Shown here: in pieces, positions 2,522 through 43,781 of the stretch
Layout of the letters: the number at the start of each line of letters is the position of its first letter
Numbering within the stretch: position 1 is the stretch's first letter
Source of the DNA: Candidatus Nomurabacteria bacterium
GTDB lineage: Bacteria > Patescibacteriota > Minisyncoccia > Phycocordibacterales > UBA9973
Assembly: GCA_023267215.1 (NCBI GenBank)
Contig: JAHFNS010000001.1
Coordinates: forward strand, 98,736-162,735
DNA: 64,000 nucleotides
Direction: 5' to 3'
Notes under the pieces: generated by a model
Databases searched by the model: none
What the model saw: the letters and a program-made list of their open reading frames with translations, nothing else
Told to the model about the DNA's origin: nothing
Made by a program: the position numbers and the translations under genes

Positions 2522-3535
2522 ATGAGTATTTTTTCTAGAAAATTAGGCATAGATTTAGGAACAGCCAACACATTGGTCTTTTTGCCAGGCAAAGGTATCG
2601 TTTTAAACGAACCTTCTGTGGTAGCTGTTTCAGAACAAGACAACAAAATCTTGGCTATTGGCTTTGAAGCAAAAGACATGATAGGAAAAACGCCGGATTC
2701 CATCATCACTTATTGTCCAATGAAAGACGGAGTTATTGCAGATTATCGAGTGACAGAAGCAATGCTCAAATATTTTATAAATAAAGCTTTAGGGAAATTT
2801 AATTTATTTAAACCAGATGTGATGGTCTCTGTACCTGCTGGGGTGACTTCCACAGAACGTAGAGCTGTCGTCGAAGCAGCTATTCGCGCAGGAGCAAAAA
2901 ATGCTTATGTGGTGAAAGAGCCTATTTTAGCTGCGATAGGTGCTGGAATCCCTATTTATGAATCAAAAGGGTATATGGTTGTAGATATCGGTGGAGGTAC
3001 GACGGATGTAGCAGTAATATCTTTAGGAGGAATAGTTTCTTCTACTTCTGTAAAATGTGCTGGAAATAAAATAGATCAAGCTATCGCAGATTATATTAAA
3101 AAAACTTTCAACTTGGCGATAGGCGATAGAACAGCAGAAGAAGTTAAAATAAAAATCGGTGCAGCTGTGCCTCTCGAAGAAGAACTTCGAGTGACCATCA
3201 AAGGACGAGATTTTATTCAAGGCTTGCCACGTTCTGCTCAAGTTGGGACTAATGAAATAGTCAAAGCGATAGACGGAGAATTAAAACAAATAATAAAAGC
3301 GATCAAAGATGTATTACAAGAAACTCCACCCGAACTTGCTTCTGATATTATGGACTATGGAATTATTATGACAGGCGGTTCTTCGCAATTACGCAACCTG
3401 ACAGATTTGGTCTATAGAAAAACTGGAGTAAAAGCGACACTTGCTGAGGATGCTCTCTTTTGTGTAGCAAAAGGTACAGGTATAGCTCTGGAACATTTAG
3501 ACGTCTATAAAAAAACAGTTTTAAGTAAAAAATAA
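2522..3535 (+). CDS. mreB: rod-shape determining actin homolog MreB
   Basis: GIDLGTANTLVF N-terminus, DIGGGTTDVAVIS, GIIMTGGSS actin-fold motifs. Start placed at MSIFSRK (track ORF begins 18 nt earlier at 2504). Confidence 0.9.
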   Translation: MSIFSRKLGIDLGTANTLVFLPGKGIVLNEPSVVAVSEQDNKILAIGFEAKDMIGKTPDSIITYCPMKDGVIADYRVTEAMLKYFINKALGKFNLFKPDVMVSVPAGVTSTERRAVVEAAIRAGAKNAYVVKEPILAAIGAGIPIYESKGYMVVDIGGGTTDVAVISLGGIVSSTSVKCAGNKIDQAIADYIKKTFNLAIGDRTAEEVKIKIGAAVPLEEELRVTIKGRDFIQGLPRSAQVGTNEIVKAIDGELKQIIKAIKDVLQETPPELASDIMDYGIIMTGGSSQLRNLTDLVYRKTGVKATLAEDALFCVAKGTGIALEHLDVYKKTVLSKK

Positions 3536-4301: not shown

Positions 4302-4853
4302 ATGTTATTCAACTTTTCAAATTTTAAAACAGAGCTTAATAAAATAGCTGAATTTTTAAGCAAAGAATACAGTCAATTAAACATTGGCCGAGCTTCTCCT
4401 ATGGTTTTAGATTCTATTTCTGTAGAATTTTATGGAGCAAGTCAGCCTATAAAAAACGTCGCTTCTATTTCTATAGAAGATCCAAAAACACTAAGAATCA
4501 ATCCTTGGGATAAAAATCAGATTAAAGAAATAGAGAAGGCTATCATGGCTTCAAACTTAGGGTTGTCTGTAGCTGTCGATGGTGCAGGAATAAGAGTGAT
4601 ATTTCCTCAACAAACAACAGAGAGTAGACAAAAATTAGTGAAAGTTTTGAAAGATAAATTAGAAGAAAGTAGAATAGTCGTTCGTAAAGAAAGAGAAAAA
4701 GCTTGGGATGATATTCAAAAAATGGAAAAGGAGGGGAATATGACAGAAGATGAAAAATTCAGAGCAAAGGATGAATTGCAAAAAGTTATAGATGAAATAA
4801 ATCAAAAGTTGGAAGGTGTCTTCGAGAAAAAAGAAAAAGAAGTAATCGGATAA
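4302..4853 (+). CDS. frr: ribosome recycling factor
   Basis: 183 aa. RRF-like pattern: N-terminal EFxKExxxL, GRASP, central NLG/VIFP, C-terminal coiled EKxxKDELQK. Confidence 0.85.
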   Translation: MLFNFSNFKTELNKIAEFLSKEYSQLNIGRASPMVLDSISVEFYGASQPIKNVASISIEDPKTLRINPWDKNQIKEIEKAIMASNLGLSVAVDGAGIRVIFPQQTTESRQKLVKVLKDKLEESRIVVRKEREKAWDDIQKMEKEGNMTEDEKFRAKDELQKVIDEINQKLEGVFEKKEKEVIG

Positions 4854-39826: not shown

Positions 39827-40687
39827 ATGAAAATTCAAAAGCTCCCCAAAAATAAATTTCCGAAAGCATTATTAGAAATTCCACAACCACCAGAGCAGCT
39901 TTACATTATTGGCGAATTGCCAAAAGAAAATTTGATTTATTTATCTGTCGTCGGTTCTCGTAAATTTACTTCTTATGGAAAAGATATTTGTGAAAAAATA
40001 ATCGCAGGATTGAAAGGGTATCCGATAGCTATAGTTTCTGGCTTCGCTATAGGCATAGATACAATATCTCATAAAAAAGCAATGCAAGTAGGTTTAAAGA
40101 CAATAGTTTTTCCTGGATCAGGACTTTCTGATGAAGCGATTTATCCAAAAACAAATGTACGACTAATGAGAGAAGTAGTAGAAAATGGTGGCTGTCTAAT
40201 TTCAGAATTCGAACCAGATTTCAAAGCGACTCAGTGGAGCTTCCCTATGCGTAACAGACTCATGGCTGGTATTTCAAAGTCTGTACTTATTATAGAAGCC
40301 GAAGAAAAGTCTGGCACGCTCATCACCGCTCGCTTGGCCACAGAATACAATAGAGATGTGCTTGCAGTGCCTGGCTCTGTATTTTCATCAAGTTCAAGAG
40401 GTACCAATAAATTGATCAAGCAAGGAGCGACTCCAGTATCTTCGGCGGAAGATGTGCTCGAAGCTCTCGGATTCGAAATCAAAAAAGATGAAAGCAAACA
40501 AGCAAAACTTTTTGCTGACTTGTCTCCCGAAGAGAAAAAAGTAATAGATCTACTTCGTGAACCAATGCCTCGTGATGATTTGATTCGTGCAATGAAAATG
40601 CCGACACCGAATGCAAACGCCATCATCTCCATAATGGAAATAAAAGAATTAATTAAAGAAGAATTAGGCGAGATACGATTAGCATAA
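39827..40687 (+). CDS. dprA: DNA processing protein DprA (Smf)
   Basis: VVGSRKFTSYGKD...IVSGFAIGIDTISHKKAM...FPGSGL Rossmann-like DprA core plus C-terminal winged-helix-like tail. Confidence 0.85.
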   Translation: MKIQKLPKNKFPKALLEIPQPPEQLYIIGELPKENLIYLSVVGSRKFTSYGKDICEKIIAGLKGYPIAIVSGFAIGIDTISHKKAMQVGLKTIVFPGSGLSDEAIYPKTNVRLMREVVENGGCLISEFEPDFKATQWSFPMRNRLMAGISKSVLIIEAEEKSGTLITARLATEYNRDVLAVPGSVFSSSSRGTNKLIKQGATPVSSAEDVLEALGFEIKKDESKQAKLFADLSPEEKKVIDLLREPMPRDDLIRAMKMPTPNANAIISIMEIKELIKEELGEIRLA

Positions 40688-40692
40688 ACAAA

Positions 40693-40735
40693 AAAGTCAC
40701 ACAAGAAAGTGTAACTTTTTTGTGTGACTTGAATT
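40693..40735 (+). terminator. rho-independent terminator of dprA
   Basis: aaaaagtcacacaa-gaaagtgtaac-ttttttgtgtgactt inverted repeat with T-run. Confidence 0.7.
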
Positions 40736-40904
40736 TACTATTCAATTTTCTCAAATGTTTTGAGAAAATTATAACCATCTTCAATAGCTATAAATATTTT
40801 TCCAAATTTTTTCCTCCTCAGGAAATTATTGTTATTGAAATTTGTCAAAAATCTAAAGCTTATTTATTTGTCTATAATATAGCATATATAGATATAAAAG
40901 TCAA

Positions 40905-40932
40905 TTGCAAATATCAGGGATTTTGGTATAAT
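40905..40932 (+). promoter_or_regulatory. near-consensus sigma-70-like promoter (TTGCAA-16-TATAAT)
   Basis: ttgcaa at ~40905..40910, 16-nt spacer, tataat at ~40927..40932. Followed ~30 nt later by a hairpin terminator, defining a tiny transcription unit. Confidence 0.45.
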
Positions 40933-40938
40933 GTGAAT

Positions 40939-40992
40939 ACAAAGTGCCGAAAGGCTTCGAGAAACCCCGCTTCTGCGGGGTTTCGATTTTCT
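40939..40992 (+). ncRNA. candidate ~55-nt small RNA (GNRA-tetraloop hairpin + terminator hairpin)
   Basis: gccGAAAggc hairpin then aaaccccgc-ttct-gcggggttt followed by tcgattttc. Lies between the promoter above and the convergent mazF-like stop codon. Putative only. Confidence 0.3.
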
Positions 40993-41380
40993 ACAAAAAT
41001 AGTTTAAGTTTTTGTTTTATTTCATTAAAAAGATGGTCAGGCATTACATAGATATCTCTTTTTAATCTTTTCACACTAATCAATCTCATCTGAGCAAGTA
41101 TAGCTGACACTTTTTGATTATTTGGATCAATATAATTAAAATAAAAATCAAATTTCTTTTGTTTAGTTGAAAGTGGGACACACCAAAACATATGATTATT
41201 AAATTTCTTTACAATTAATACTGGACGAGAAAAACTATCTTCACTACCATTCTGCTCATATCCAATATTTCTACCTAAAGAACACATCCAGACTTCTCCT
41301 TCTTTAGGAAAATTATCAGGCATATTTTCTCTGGTATTTATTTTCTTTTTTAATTCGTTCCAATTATCAAATTCTTCCAT
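40991..41380 (-). CDS. MazF/PemK-family toxin (mRNA interferase)-like protein
   Basis: GEVWMCSLGRNIGYEQNGSEDSFSRPVLIVKKFNNHMFWCVPLSTKQK aligns with MazF GDLIWVDFDPTKGSEQAGHRPAVVL...CVPCTTQSK. No adjacent antitoxin ORF. Confidence 0.6.
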   Translation of the reverse strand: MEEFDNWNELKKKINTRENMPDNFPKEGEVWMCSLGRNIGYEQNGSEDSFSRPVLIVKKFNNHMFWCVPLSTKQKKFDFYFNYIDPNNQKVSAILAQMRLISVKRLKRDIYVMPDHLFNEIKQKLKLFL

Positions 41381-41507
41381 GTTTTTATTATCTCAAATAA
41401 TTAAATTTAATACAAATAAAAAAACTAAAATTTGCAAAAAAAATATATTTCGTGTAATACTTGAAGTTAGGTGCTAGCGACTAGTTGCTAGGGACTAGAA
41501 AAAATTT

Positions 41508-43781
41508 ATGAAATTACTCATTGTTGAATCACCATCAAAAGCAAAGACTATAGAAAAATATTTAGAAGGCGCATACACAGTGCGTGCTTCTATTGGACAT
41601 ATTCGTGATTTACCTAAATCAAACAAACAAGCGATAGATATCGAAGGTGGTTTCATTCCACATTATGAAATTTCAAAAGGTAAAGAAAAAGTTGTTCATG
41701 AACTTCAATCACTCGGAGAAAAAGCCACAGAGATATTGTTAGCGACAGACCCCGACCGTGAAGGAGAAGCTATAGCTTGGCATATAGAAGAACTTTTAAA
41801 GAAAGATAAAAAAATAAAAGCTAAAGCGAAACGTGTGACATTCCATGAAATAACAAAGGAAGCCGTAGAAGAAGCATTGAAACATCCTCGAAACATAGAC
41901 ACTGCTTTGAGAAAAGCTCAAGAAGCAAGACGTGTCCTCGACAGACTCGTAGGATATGATCTGTCTGGTTTGATATGGAAAAAAGTACGCTATGGACTCT
42001 CTGCAGGACGTGTTCAATCCCCTGCACTCCGCATAATAATGGAACGCGAAAGAGAAATCCGTGCTTTTGTGCCAGAGAAATATTGGAGAATATTAGGACT
42101 TTTTGAAACACCCAAAAAAGGAAAACTTACTTTAAATTGTTCTATTGAGCCAAGAGATGAAAAAGTTGTAGAAAAAATAATGGAAGAAGGCAATAGTAAA
42201 GATTGGTTTGTAACTGATGTCAAAGAGGGAGAGCAAAAGAGAGTTCCTCGTGCTCCGTTCACTACTTCCACATTACAACAGACAGCGAGCTCTCGCCTTG
42301 GATATTCCCCTTCTAGGACAATGCAAATAGCTCAAAAACTTTATGAAGCTGGACATATCACATACATGCGTACAGATAGTACAAATTTATCTCTTGTCGC
42401 TCAATCACAGATAGTTTCTATGATTGAAAAAAAATATGGGAAAAATTTTGCACAAGCAAGAATTTATAAAACAAAATCAAAAAATGCCCAAGAAGCACAC
42501 GAAGCTATTCGCCCAACTCATATAGAAAATATGTTGGCTGGCACAGATGAACAACAAAGACTTTATAGATTAATCTGGGAGCGTGCTGTTTCTTCACAAA
42601 TGGCAGATGCGAAATTATTGAAGACAAAAATAAGTGCGAATATAGCTTACAGCCCCAAAGACGGTCTTCGGGGAGCTCCCCGAAGACCGTCTTTGGGGCA
42701 ATTCGAATTCCCAGACTTCACAGCTGTCGGTTCCAGAATTCTTTTCTCTGGTTGGCTAGAAGTTGATAGAGATAGTGTCGGAGAAGATTTTGAATTACCA
42801 GAAGTAAAGAAGGGAGACAAATTAAAATTGTTAAATCTCGTTAATGAAGAAAAATTTACCGAACCACCAAATAGATATAGTGAAGCAGGCCTCATTAAAG
42901 AACTCGAGGCACGAGACATAGGTAGACCTTCTACTTATGCTTCCATAATGAAAACATTGGAAGACAGAGAATATGTCAGGAAAGAAGGCAAAACTCTATT
43001 CCCTACAGACGTCGGTGAAGTCGTGTCAGACTTCTTAGAAAATAATTTTGCAAATTATATCTCTGATACATTCACAGCTGAGATGGAAGACGAGCTAGAT
43101 GAAATATCTCGTGGTGAACGTGAATACGAAAAAACATTAAAAGATTTCTATGGACCATTCTTAAAAGAAATAAAAATAAAAGAAAAGTTAGAAAAAGCGA
43201 CAAATTTAGGAGAAGCACCAGAAGGTATAGTGTGTCCAAAATGTGGCAGTAAAATGATAGTGAAGCTTTCTCGTGCAGGAAAATTCTATTCTTGTATTAA
43301 ATATCCAGATTGTGACGGAGCCCTTATGATAGACGGTACAGAATTGAAAGGTCCAAAAGAAACTGGTGAGATGTGTCCCCAATGTGGACATAAGAGTGGA
43401 GGAAAAAAAGGAAATGGGGGTGGAGGAAAATTGATCATACGCGAGAGACGTGATGGCACTGGCACATTCATTTCTTGTTCTCGTTATCCAAAATGTAAGT
43501 TCATAAAAAAAGACGAAGCAGAAGAAGCAAAAAAAAGAACTGGGGTTATCTGTCCAACTTGCAAAAAAGGAGATATTTCTGAGCGCAAAGGAAGATTTGG
43601 AGTATTTTATTCCTGTTCAAACTATCCTGATTGTAAATTTGCAATTAAAGCAAAACCCACTGGTAAAACATGTGATAAATGTGGATCTTTAATGATGCAA
43701 GGTACAAAAACTATCCCTGATAGATGCAGTAATAATACATGTTTAAATTATCGACCTGATAAATTAAATAAAATTAAATAA
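41508..43781 (+). CDS. topA: DNA topoisomerase I with C-terminal zinc-ribbon repeats
   Basis: MKLLIVESPSKAKTIEKYLEG...GHIRDLP (TOPRIM), active-site region HITYMRTDS, four CxxC...CxxC zinc ribbons at the C-terminus. Carries an in-frame 46-bp palindrome at 42653..42698. Confidence 0.9.
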   Translation: MKLLIVESPSKAKTIEKYLEGAYTVRASIGHIRDLPKSNKQAIDIEGGFIPHYEISKGKEKVVHELQSLGEKATEILLATDPDREGEAIAWHIEELLKKDKKIKAKAKRVTFHEITKEAVEEALKHPRNIDTALRKAQEARRVLDRLVGYDLSGLIWKKVRYGLSAGRVQSPALRIIMEREREIRAFVPEKYWRILGLFETPKKGKLTLNCSIEPRDEKVVEKIMEEGNSKDWFVTDVKEGEQKRVPRAPFTTSTLQQTASSRLGYSPSRTMQIAQKLYEAGHITYMRTDSTNLSLVAQSQIVSMIEKKYGKNFAQARIYKTKSKNAQEAHEAIRPTHIENMLAGTDEQQRLYRLIWERAVSSQMADAKLLKTKISANIAYSPKDGLRGAPRRPSLGQFEFPDFTAVGSRILFSGWLEVDRDSVGEDFELPEVKKGDKLKLLNLVNEEKFTEPPNRYSEAGLIKELEARDIGRPSTYASIMKTLEDREYVRKEGKTLFPTDVGEVVSDFLENNFANYISDTFTAEMEDELDEISRGEREYEKTLKDFYGPFLKEIKIKEKLEKATNLGEAPEGIVCPKCGSKMIVKLSRAGKFYSCIKYPDCDGALMIDGTELKGPKETGEMCPQCGHKSGGKKGNGGGGKLIIRERRDGTGTFISCSRYPKCKFIKKDEAEEAKKRTGVICPTCKKGDISERKGRFGVFYSCSNYPDCKFAIKAKPTGKTCDKCGSLMMQGTKTIPDRCSNNTCLNYRPDKLNKIK
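42653..42698. repeat. family A GC-rich palindromic element, copy 2 (in topA, in-frame)
   Basis: ccccaaagacggtcttcgggg-agct-ccccgaagaccgtctttgggg. Perfect 21-bp arms, near-identical to copy 1. Confidence 0.8.

Follow-up and report, generated by a model that had tools for sequence, protein, structure and literature searches.

We examined a 64,000-nucleotide (nt) stretch of a Candidatus Nomurabacteria bacterium genome (assembly GCA_023267215.1, contig JAHFNS010000001.1, positions 98,736 to 162,735, forward strand), referred to here as the window. The interval between dprA and topA (40688-41507) contains a single real open reading frame (ORF), at 40991-41380 on the minus strand, which encodes a 129-amino-acid (aa) MazF/PemK-like toxin. 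Facing this gene, and abutting its stop codon, is a candidate small RNA (sRNA) gene on the opposite strand. The features of the locus, in window coordinates, are as follows.

40991..41380, minus strand: gene for a PemK/MazF-fold endoribonuclease toxin, 129 aa (PF02452, sequence profile, AlphaFold2 [AF2]/Foldseek)
41387..41395, minus strand: putative toxin promoter recognised from its sequence, an extended -10 box (TGaGATAAT) separated from the ATG by 6 nt
40905..40932, plus strand: sRNA promoter, with -35 box TTGCAA (40905-40910), a 16-nt spacer and -10 box TATAAT (40927-40932), extended as TGgTATAAT (40924-40932)
40939..40992, plus strand: candidate antitoxin sRNA of about 54 nt, its ends placed from the promoter and terminator
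40946..40955, plus strand: hairpin 1, a 3-bp stem (GCC/GGC) with a GAAA tetraloop
40961..40984, plus strand: terminator hairpin of 10 bp, 7 of them G-C, with loop UUCU
40985..40993, plus strand: U-rich tail GAUUUUCUA, the final 3 nt of which complement the toxin stop codon TAG (40991-40993)
40958-40961 and 40984-40986, plus strand: CGAG...CGA residues flanking the terminator base, invariant in homologues
39827-40687, plus strand: dprA, left neighbour of the toxin region
41508-43781, plus strand: topA, right neighbour of the toxin region

The sRNA reads 5'-ACAAAGUGCC-GAAA-GGCUUCGAGAAACCCCGC-UUCU-GCGGGGUUUCGAUUUUCU and has a G+C content of 51.9%, versus 31.5% for the window. The 63 nt at 40936-40998 fold with -24.6 kcal/mol (z = -4.3 versus shuffles). 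An initial annotation, made from the letters of the window alone, had described a promoter (TTGCAA-16-TATAAT) and a terminator hairpin followed by a U-run at this position; the promoter lies at 40905..40932 as described, and the hairpin and its tail, which overlaps the toxin stop, are likewise where the annotation placed them. The distance of about 30 nt that it gave from the promoter to the GAAA hairpin was too long, as the hairpin begins 14 nt past the -10 box.

The terminator is mildly unusual by itself (2 found versus 0.7 expected), yet the significance of the sRNA gene comes from its conservation in other genomes and not from a match within a single sequence. A scan of GTDB with one genome per species found 271 genomes that encode a relative of the toxin, and the best 80 loci were compared. 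Nearly all of these derive from uncultured metagenome-assembled genomes of the candidate phyla radiation (CPR)/Patescibacteria type, spread over many candidate lineages. The gene neighbourhood around the toxin is not conserved among them: topA is adjacent at a single locus (L001), which rules out synteny with topA, dprA or serS as an explanation. What is conserved, at nearly all of the 80 loci, is a stretch of about 100 nt 3' of the toxin stop. On the strand opposite the toxin, its consensus is TTGAC(T/A), a 17-nt spacer, TGnTATAcT and about 6 variable nt, followed by an RNA body of the form ACAAAGUGCC-(tetraloop)-GGCUCCGAGAAACCCCGC-(loop)-GCGGGGUUUCGA(G/U)UUU(C)UA. Across 72 aligned sequences, conservation of TTGAC and TAnnnT reaches 90% or more, at constant spacing and constant distance to the RNA body. 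The conserved RNA body extends from the predicted transcription start to the toxin stop codon, so its limits match a transcript of about 54 nt.

A covariance model (CM R1) built from the 72 sequences found the RNA at 79 of the 79 loci that have sequence past the stop, always on the opposite strand and abutting the stop, with scores of 33.8-86 bits; the window holds a single copy (40935-40996, plus strand, 73.2 bits). The initial annotation had suggested looking for the promoter and hairpins beside mazF-like genes in relatives, and the promoter, the 5' block, the two helices and the U-run are indeed kept at all 79 toxin loci. Cells of the two helices are paired in 96.3% of cases, versus at most 55.6% in slid-partner controls. 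Double changes occur in 11 of 14 pairs (63 cells), and the observed values were matched in 0 of 500 shuffles. Compensatory changes affect 10 of the 11 pairs of the terminator helix, and the hairpin 1 stem, paired in 100% of sequences, shows G-C to U-A compensation. RNAalifold independently predicts the same two helices. At the divergent loci L065, L068 and L079, hairpin 1 is longer or re-sequenced.

The strand of the RNA is indicated by several of these features. Hairpin 1 is capped in the 72 homologues by GAAA (38 sequences), GCAA (13) or GUAA (12), making 63 GNRA loops, by UUCG (7) or by a longer loop (2), and the GNRA and UUCG loops are standard tetraloops only as read opposite the toxin strand. 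Read on the sRNA strand, G-U cells number 13 versus 2 C-A cells, and the 9 nt past the stem contain 4-5 T at most loci, versus about 2 on the toxin strand. Because promoter, tetraloops, G-U excess and U-run all fit the plus strand of the window, we place the RNA there. The plus-strand RNA gene of about 55 nt put forward in the initial annotation is thus backed by a conserved promoter, covariation and strand-specific signs, and comparison across loci shows that the sRNA gene is real, with a defined strand, structure and conservation. A peptide reading of the region (a GTG ORF at 40944-41051) was rejected, since the exchange of one loop for another, the varying loop length and the compensatory changes in the stems are features of the RNA level. 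The sRNA belongs to no curated Rfam 15 family: at gathering thresholds the whole window yielded three tRNAs only, and a search of 40650-41550 at E up to 10 yielded only terminator-driven chance matches (rnk leader, RsmY and istR; best 23-26 bits).

The RNA is also more constrained than the gene it faces. Median nucleotide identity is 87.5% for the RNA core versus 68.5-71.8% for the toxin coding sequence (CDS), and in 286 of 300 random pairs the RNA shows the higher conservation. Its invariant positions (72 of 72 sequences) number 15, many of them unpaired; they include A7, A9 and G10 in the 5' single strand and C28, G29, A30 and G31 together with C62, G63 and A64 at the terminator base. Tandem sheared G.A pairing is a known behaviour of the CGAG sequence context, and the CGAG/CGAG at the terminator base could form such pairs. 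At two divergent loci (L080, 4384-4520, minus strand; L076, about 4381-4540, minus strand), each sRNA transcript has 2-3 tandem 5' modules (AAAGUGCC-loop-GGCUCCGAG), which recall the repeats of type III antitoxins.

The protein encoded opposite this RNA matches Pfam PF02452 (PemK_toxin) at 43.7 bits (cut-off 23.1) over residues 26-129; matches to the NCBIfam MazF and CptIN models are weak (CptIN, 16.3 bits versus a cut-off of 90). The MazF motif noted in the initial annotation is present, but with a 5-residue insertion before RP that had been overlooked: as read here, it runs G28xxW31, 8 residues, G40xEQxG45, 6 residues, R52P53xLIV. The CVPLSTKQK loop, also noted there, is found in the ORF. 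A search of 5.8 billion proteins returned 848 relatives, the best 120 of which are all about 129 aa long and 71-88% identical; the few of these 120 with a named source come from Patescibacteria (Nomurabacteria, Minisyncoccia), where they are annotated as "mRNA interferase MazF" or "type II ... PemK/MazF family toxin." A profile built on 60 sequences from two subfamilies, the second being 30-40% identical, matches the solved EndoA/MazF, MoxT, SaMazF, EcMazF and Kid, with B. subtilis EndoA/MazF as the best match (E = 3.4e-7). The same two-subfamily input of 60 sequences gave an AF2 model of moderate confidence, which superseded one made from 22 close homologues (pLDDT 52). In a Foldseek search of this model against the PDB, the top 50 matches were all MazF (probability 1.00, TM 0.53-0.62), and no ToxN-type structure was among them.

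R52-P53 and T72 are invariant in the 60 sequences and in both subfamilies. R52-P53 aligns with the catalytic R25-P26 of B. subtilis EndoA/MazF, and T72, inside the PLSTKQK loop, is matched to the catalytic Thr/Ser by alignment only; we take the catalytic residues of MazF to be the Arg (R25 in BsMazF, R29 in EcMazF) and the Thr/Ser (T48 and T52). Because the MazF fold and the invariant R52-P53 and T72 are in place, the toxin is probably an active enzyme. MazF is a textbook type II toxin, and the protein is presumably toxic. At its N terminus, this clade has in addition an extra helix, formed by residues 2-16, in which W7 and K11 never vary, and solved MazF chains align with the toxin only from about residue 25 on. 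The PADLOC defence library contains no match to the toxin, and PHROGs returned only a generic "MazF-like growth inhibitor."

A conserved protein antitoxin was not found. ORF clustering of 81 loci, with ATG, GTG and TTG starts allowed, revealed no recurrent partner of 35 aa or more up to 2.5 kb from the toxin; the sole recurrent "ORFs" are reading frames across the RNA region. The initial annotation had seen no small antitoxin ORF on either strand. Small ORFs do exist once TTG and GTG starts are considered, namely, one of 36 aa (40738-40848, minus strand) and one of 32 aa (41379-41477, plus strand), but neither has a counterpart at the other loci. Across the loci compared, the toxin is thus without a conserved protein partner.

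Co-occurrence was examined in the reverse direction by a metagenome scan with a 22-nt RNA pattern, which returned at least 120 loci. Among the matches listed, 3 are chance matches in G+C-rich coding sequence and 13 have too little flanking DNA. A PemK gene faces the RNA in 88 of the 104 genuine copies listed, with its stop 31-86 nt past the matched pattern; the remaining 16, which score 51-82 bits and have 430 nt or more of room, are genuine RNA genes without PemK-like sequence. A profile hidden Markov model search with filters off found no toxin remnants beside these 16 listed orphans, and C-terminal remnants suspected by eye at L116 and L179 were not significant. Several of the orphan RNAs that were inspected show recognisable -35 and -10 boxes. 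About 15% of the genuine RNA genes among the matches listed therefore stand alone, versus 0 of 79 toxins without RNA. This asymmetry is the pattern expected of an antitoxin: if the RNA has that role, its loss would be lethal and loss of the toxin harmless, so that the RNA may stand alone and the toxin never.

The neighbours of the orphan RNAs are mixed (aspartyl protease, queA-like and rplS-like genes identified by eye, and unknowns). They are too heterogeneous to suggest that the orphans partner another toxin, and nothing supports that idea. Some orphan sRNAs abut the stops of unrelated genes, at L095 (120-183, a 136-aa unknown), L168 (4466-4527, a retroviral-type aspartyl protease, PF13650) and L113 (2454-2515, a 97-aa unknown); this may reflect chance after toxin loss or a re-used RNA or terminator. 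A search for the RNA in viral contigs, as a phage decoy might predict, returned zero matches.

Taken together, these observations suggest that the locus is a two-gene toxin-antitoxin (TA) cassette in which the RNA is the antitoxin, a reading to which we assign a probability of roughly 0.75. The possibility of an RNA antitoxin or antisense regulator had been raised in the initial annotation, and it gains support from the real RNA gene, the lack of a protein antitoxin and the asymmetric co-occurrence. In this proposal, a horizontally mobile cassette of about 0.5 kb would combine a MazF/PemK-fold endoribonuclease gene with a convergent sRNA gene. A -10-like box (consensus TGnTAAAAT) lies 5-9 nt before the toxin start in at least 49 of the 80 related loci; with the box 6 nt from the ATG in the window, the toxin mRNA would be leaderless or near-leaderless, with no Shine-Dalgarno sequence. 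The toxin gene would thus have a modest promoter of the extended -10 kind and, probably, a leaderless mRNA, and the sRNA, with its near-consensus promoter and strong terminator, would be in excess. From its 5' end, the predicted sRNA consists of a single strand (ACAAAG), the tetraloop hairpin, the invariant UCCGAG linker, the terminator helix and a U-tail that lies over the toxin stop. This RNA would neutralise the toxin.

Several points weigh against this proposal. The whole case for an RNA antitoxin is comparative, and only the best 80 of the 271 GTDB loci were compared. Within the single sequence, the promoter match is not above chance (6 sites in the region versus 6.3 expected). The AF2 model reaches a pLDDT of 73, and its N-terminal helix is poorly modelled. 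Conservation of the toxin protein (71-88% identity and about 129 aa among the best 120 relatives) is unusual and could fit a nontoxic cellular role. Finally, a required RNA cofactor whose orphan copies are recent remnants would give the same asymmetric co-occurrence.

As to how the RNA would act, we tentatively prefer a model in which the RNA binds the toxin protein directly and in a sequence-specific way, a type III-like logic, with the 5'-terminal ACA-containing strand and the hairpin-1/linker module as the recognition unit. A cis-antisense RNA is complementary whatever its sequence, so the constraint on this RNA points to a conserved partner that recognises it, and the toxin is the simplest candidate for that partner. 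We also count in favour of protein binding that the hairpin 1 caps are rigid GNRA or UUCG loops and not kissing loops. The tandem 5' modules of L080 and L076 and the clade-specific N-terminal helix (W7, K11) fit direct protein binding as well. Complementarity of the RNA to the toxin 5' end or CDS did not exceed chance (median z of -0.08 and 0.06, respectively), and trans-antisense targeting of the toxin start region or CDS was rejected for lack of signal. The sole RNA-RNA pairing possible is accordingly with a read-through 3' untranslated region (UTR). Against direct binding stands the finding that no RNA motif is common to the sRNA and the Campylobacterota homologues described below. Direct binding and antisense action might also operate together.

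A purely type I-like, cis-antisense action, in which the sRNA pairs only with read-through toxin mRNA and the duplex is cleaved (e.g., by RNase III) with no protein contact, strikes us as rather unlikely. Points in its favour are the convergent layout and the overlap of the toxin stop codon with the RNA tail. The toxin strand has no U-run past the shared hairpin, so that read-through is likely and would form a duplex of about 55 bp with the sRNA, and the sRNA promoter is near consensus versus an extended -10 box only for the toxin. The same architecture, with unrelated RNA sequence, occurs on Campylobacter pVir and on a Nitratiruptor plasmid. There are 3'-overlapping type I precedents in B. 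subtilis, namely, TxpA/RatA and BsrG/SR4. In addition, CjrA of Campylobacter is described as a type I antitoxin in two publications (PMC10470494, PMC7826846). However, complementarity needs no fixed sequence, and this RNA is far better conserved than the toxin CDS, with 15 invariant positions. Its GNRA/UUCG caps would be poor kissing loops, its 5' module is tandemly duplicated in L080 and L076, and orphan copies of the RNA retain the same sequence.

It is improbable, in our view, that the MazF-fold RNase has been domesticated for a cellular or defence role and that the RNA, instead of being an antitoxin, is its substrate, guide or cofactor within a ribonucleoprotein. The unusual conservation and constant length of the protein, its strict linkage to the RNA and an RNA invariance that points to a specific protein contact would all suit such a particle, as would the lack of a PADLOC match to any known defence family. 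Yet every MazF/PemK (PF02452) enzyme characterised to our knowledge is a growth-inhibiting RNase held by an inhibitor, and intact RNA genes persist without the protein, which is easier to reconcile with an antidote than with a cofactor. Genomic context also speaks against a core function: toxin contexts are variable and often near recombinases and other RNase genes, as in a mobile cassette. For this reason we do not favour the domesticated-toxin option that the initial annotation had left standing.

Two further explanations are very improbable. A shared bidirectional terminator and 3' UTR element of the toxin mRNA, with no separate RNA gene, would account for a hairpin that abuts the stop and must be crossed by toxin transcripts, and for the chance-level promoter match, but it is largely refuted by the -35 and -10 boxes kept on the opposite strand at constant spacing in 72 loci, the standard tetraloops and U-run on that strand alone, the 13-to-2 ratio of G-U to C-A cells, and the orphan RNAs without toxin, several with promoter boxes. 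An ordinary type II system whose protein antitoxin was overlooked, being very small, started at an unusual codon or encoded elsewhere, has in its favour the NCBI and JGI label of relatives ("type II toxin-antitoxin system PemK/MazF family toxin") and a ribbon-helix-helix-like 62-aa ORF 3' of the toxin gene on the Nitratiruptor plasmid, but it conflicts with the lack of any recurrent ORF in the 81 loci, with the 36-aa and 32-aa ORFs of the window having no counterparts elsewhere, and with a toxin start that lies only 6 nt past its own -10 box, so that no cotranscribed gene would fit upstream.

Among known systems, the closest precedent is CjrA/CjpT, from plasmid pVir of C. jejuni 81-176, which PMC10470494 and PMC7826846 present as a type I pair whose antitoxin is an antisense sRNA. 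Like the cassette proposed here, it pairs an RNA antitoxin with a protein toxin and has no protein antitoxin. The pVir homologue of the window toxin, WP_011117588.1, is 37% identical over residues 3-105, N-terminal extension included, and is the only annotated toxin-like gene on the plasmid, which makes it a candidate for CjpT. Directly past its stop there is a GC hairpin and, about 100 nt on, a TGnTATAAT box on the opposite strand, as in the window. The predicted pVir RNA is longer, however (about 95 nt), and shows neither sequence nor CM similarity to the CPR RNA; CM R1 gave only chance-level scores on the pVir locus, so that architecture alone is common to the two. Strong sequence constraint like that of the CPR RNA is not reported for CjrA.

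Type III systems (ToxIN, CptIN, TenpIN, AbiQ/antiQ) share with our preferred reading an endoribonuclease toxin and a structured RNA inhibitor, the binding being predicted here. ToxN is structurally related to Kid/MazF, and the rare CPR loci L076 and L080 have tandem RNA modules. Unlike in type III systems, the window toxin is a true MazF/PemK, not a ToxN or CptN (CptIN, 16.3 versus 90 bits; Foldseek, MazF only), and no processing of the RNA by the toxin is implied. The RNA usually comprises one unit, which has a promoter of its own and lies downstream of the toxin gene on the opposite strand, whereas type III antitoxins are repeat arrays upstream on the same strand, with a terminator between array and toxin. 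No tandem repeats were found in the 127 nt upstream of the toxin besides a CTAG cluster near topA.

The 3'-overlapping type I systems TxpA/RatA and BsrG/SR4 have an antitoxin RNA that is transcribed towards the toxin gene and covers the 3' end of its mRNA, as the candidate antitoxin of the window would. The type I norm is a hydrophobic membrane peptide of less than about 60 aa, whereas the window toxin is a soluble MazF-fold RNase of 129 aa; SymE (SymE/SymR) and RalR (RalR/RalA) are type I toxins that are likewise not membrane peptides. Unlike in the B. subtilis pairs, the overlap with the CDS is limited to the stop codon, and full complementarity between sRNA and toxin mRNA exists only with read-through of the shared hairpin. 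Unlike type I antisense RNAs, this RNA is invariant in sequence across bacterial classes.

With the type II systems MazEF, PemIK and Kid-Kis, the locus shares the toxin family, the fold (PF02452) and the catalytic-loop residues. It differs in having no MazE/PemI-type gene, an extra N-terminal helix and a monocistronic, probably leaderless mRNA. The Rfam pemK RNA motif, ToxI, CptI and others are also RNAs beside PemK or other toxin genes, and none matches the CPR RNA. Literature searches turned up no publication that deals with this RNA or with RNA antitoxins in CPR. What appears to be new is the combination, in one TA module, of a true MazF toxin and a candidate RNA antitoxin from a new RNA family.

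Related arrangements occur elsewhere in CPR genomes. A second CPR PemK subfamily (30-40% identical; motif EIWWCSLGVNVGFEQDG) is present at L208 (1-356 and 1501-1887) and L051 (3448-3840, minus strand). It faces a convergent sRNA that abuts the stop, with a TTGACA-17-TGcTAnnAT promoter followed by ACAA(A)UGGC-UUCG-GCC-UCG-CCCCGC... The hairpin 1 stem is flipped relative to the window RNA, and CM R1 scores only about 8 bits, for which reason we regard this as a sister RNA family. Genes for NYN-domain (PF01936) RNases, often in PemK-NYN-PemK clusters, are found at L208 (517-1029, plus sequence to 1100), L036 (3035-3610) and L051 (2620-3190, minus strand). They have a GC hairpin directly past the stop and a TTGAC-17-TATAAT-type promoter on the opposite strand, and the body of the associated RNA resembles CC(C)U-AUGCAGA...UCUGCAU-GGGGG-U-run. 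The NYN gene and its RNA are possibly another pair of RNase toxin and RNA antitoxin. In L051, an orphan R1-like sRNA (3266-3329, minus strand, 47.6 bits; UACAAAGUGCC-GAAG-GGCAC...) with its own promoter lies between the subfamily-B PemK module and the NYN gene, in a genome that also has a subfamily-A module.

Outside CPR, the homologue on the Nitratiruptor plasmid (L082) keeps the layout of a convergent hairpin and TATAAT with an unrelated RNA sequence. The 62-aa ORF on that plasmid (1973-2161) lies past the hairpins on the same strand as the PemK homologue and is ribbon-helix-helix-like by eye (...TIRVEDDLWDKFKKIA...); in that lineage it could serve as a protein antitoxin or as a regulator. 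The tail-to-tail design is probably also present on Campylobacter, Helicobacter and Nitratiruptor plasmids. Its recurrence beside the second PemK subfamily and the NYN genes suggests that a tail-to-tail RNase/sRNA pair is a general module design in CPR genomes.

A broader interpretation, possible but doubtful, is that these loci form a new class of TA system in CPR, in which RNase toxins (MazF subfamily A, the second MazF subfamily and NYN-domain proteins) would be neutralised by a single-unit, tail-to-tail, protein-binding structured sRNA. The 5'-terminal ACA-containing strand could then be an uncleavable pseudo-substrate. If true, such a class would have type III logic but no relation to ToxIN-type systems, be it by toxin family, by the architecture of the RNA or by the arrangement of the genes, and it could be the main TA design in CPR, a large and poorly known part of the bacterial tree.

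For the cassette itself, the comparison points to a clade of MazF-fold toxins, represented in 271 GTDB species genomes and by more than 800 protein clusters, in which an sRNA would replace the protein antidote; current annotation labels the clade "type II toxin," so that its members look orphan. The RNA is a new, strongly covarying family from CPR/Patescibacteria, where we know of very few characterised small RNAs, and its short length of 54 nt makes it suitable for direct study of structure and biochemistry. Its invariant sequence suggests an RNA-protein recognition code, which would blur the boundary between type I and type III. The covariance model offers a simple route to re-annotating such loci, and the recurrence beside the second MazF subfamily and the NYN RNases points to a general, overlooked type of module.

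Several loci show signs of mobility. A G+C-rich block (ggattcgcaaaaccgagactaa...cgggtttccgccccgcaggagggtgcggg...) is conserved about 40-160 nt upstream of the toxin start at L004, L006, L007, L010, L013 and L077. Large serine recombinase genes are nearby in 8 loci, with tRNA genes close. This suggests that the cassette is carried on integrative elements. LOOT RNA (RF03000, 78-88 bits) lies about 100 nt past the sRNA promoter at L005 (3132-3253), L010 (993-1114) and L013 (4553-4676).

Within the window, the spacer between dprA and the toxin contains two more strong hairpins. One (40694-40730) is a 17-bp near-perfect palindrome immediately 3' of the dprA stop; the other (40744-40770) has arms UUUUCUCAAA/UUUGAGAAAA. 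Both are probably terminators, for dprA and for read-through toxin transcripts, and the full 313-nt spacer folds with z = -7.9. On the other side of the toxin, the upstream gap is 127 bp, as the initial annotation gave, and the CTAG direct repeats that it described there are real, with four copies at an exact 7-nt period. The four tetramers (41474-41498) amount to two copies of TGCTAG(C/G)GACTAG, 10-34 nt 5' of the topA ATG. The cluster is not conserved beside the toxin at other loci, and we therefore assign it to topA, of which it is probably an element (operator or leader). CTAG is under-represented in the window (125 found versus 185 expected), and this cluster is the sole group of at least three CTAG within 30 nt across the 64 kb.

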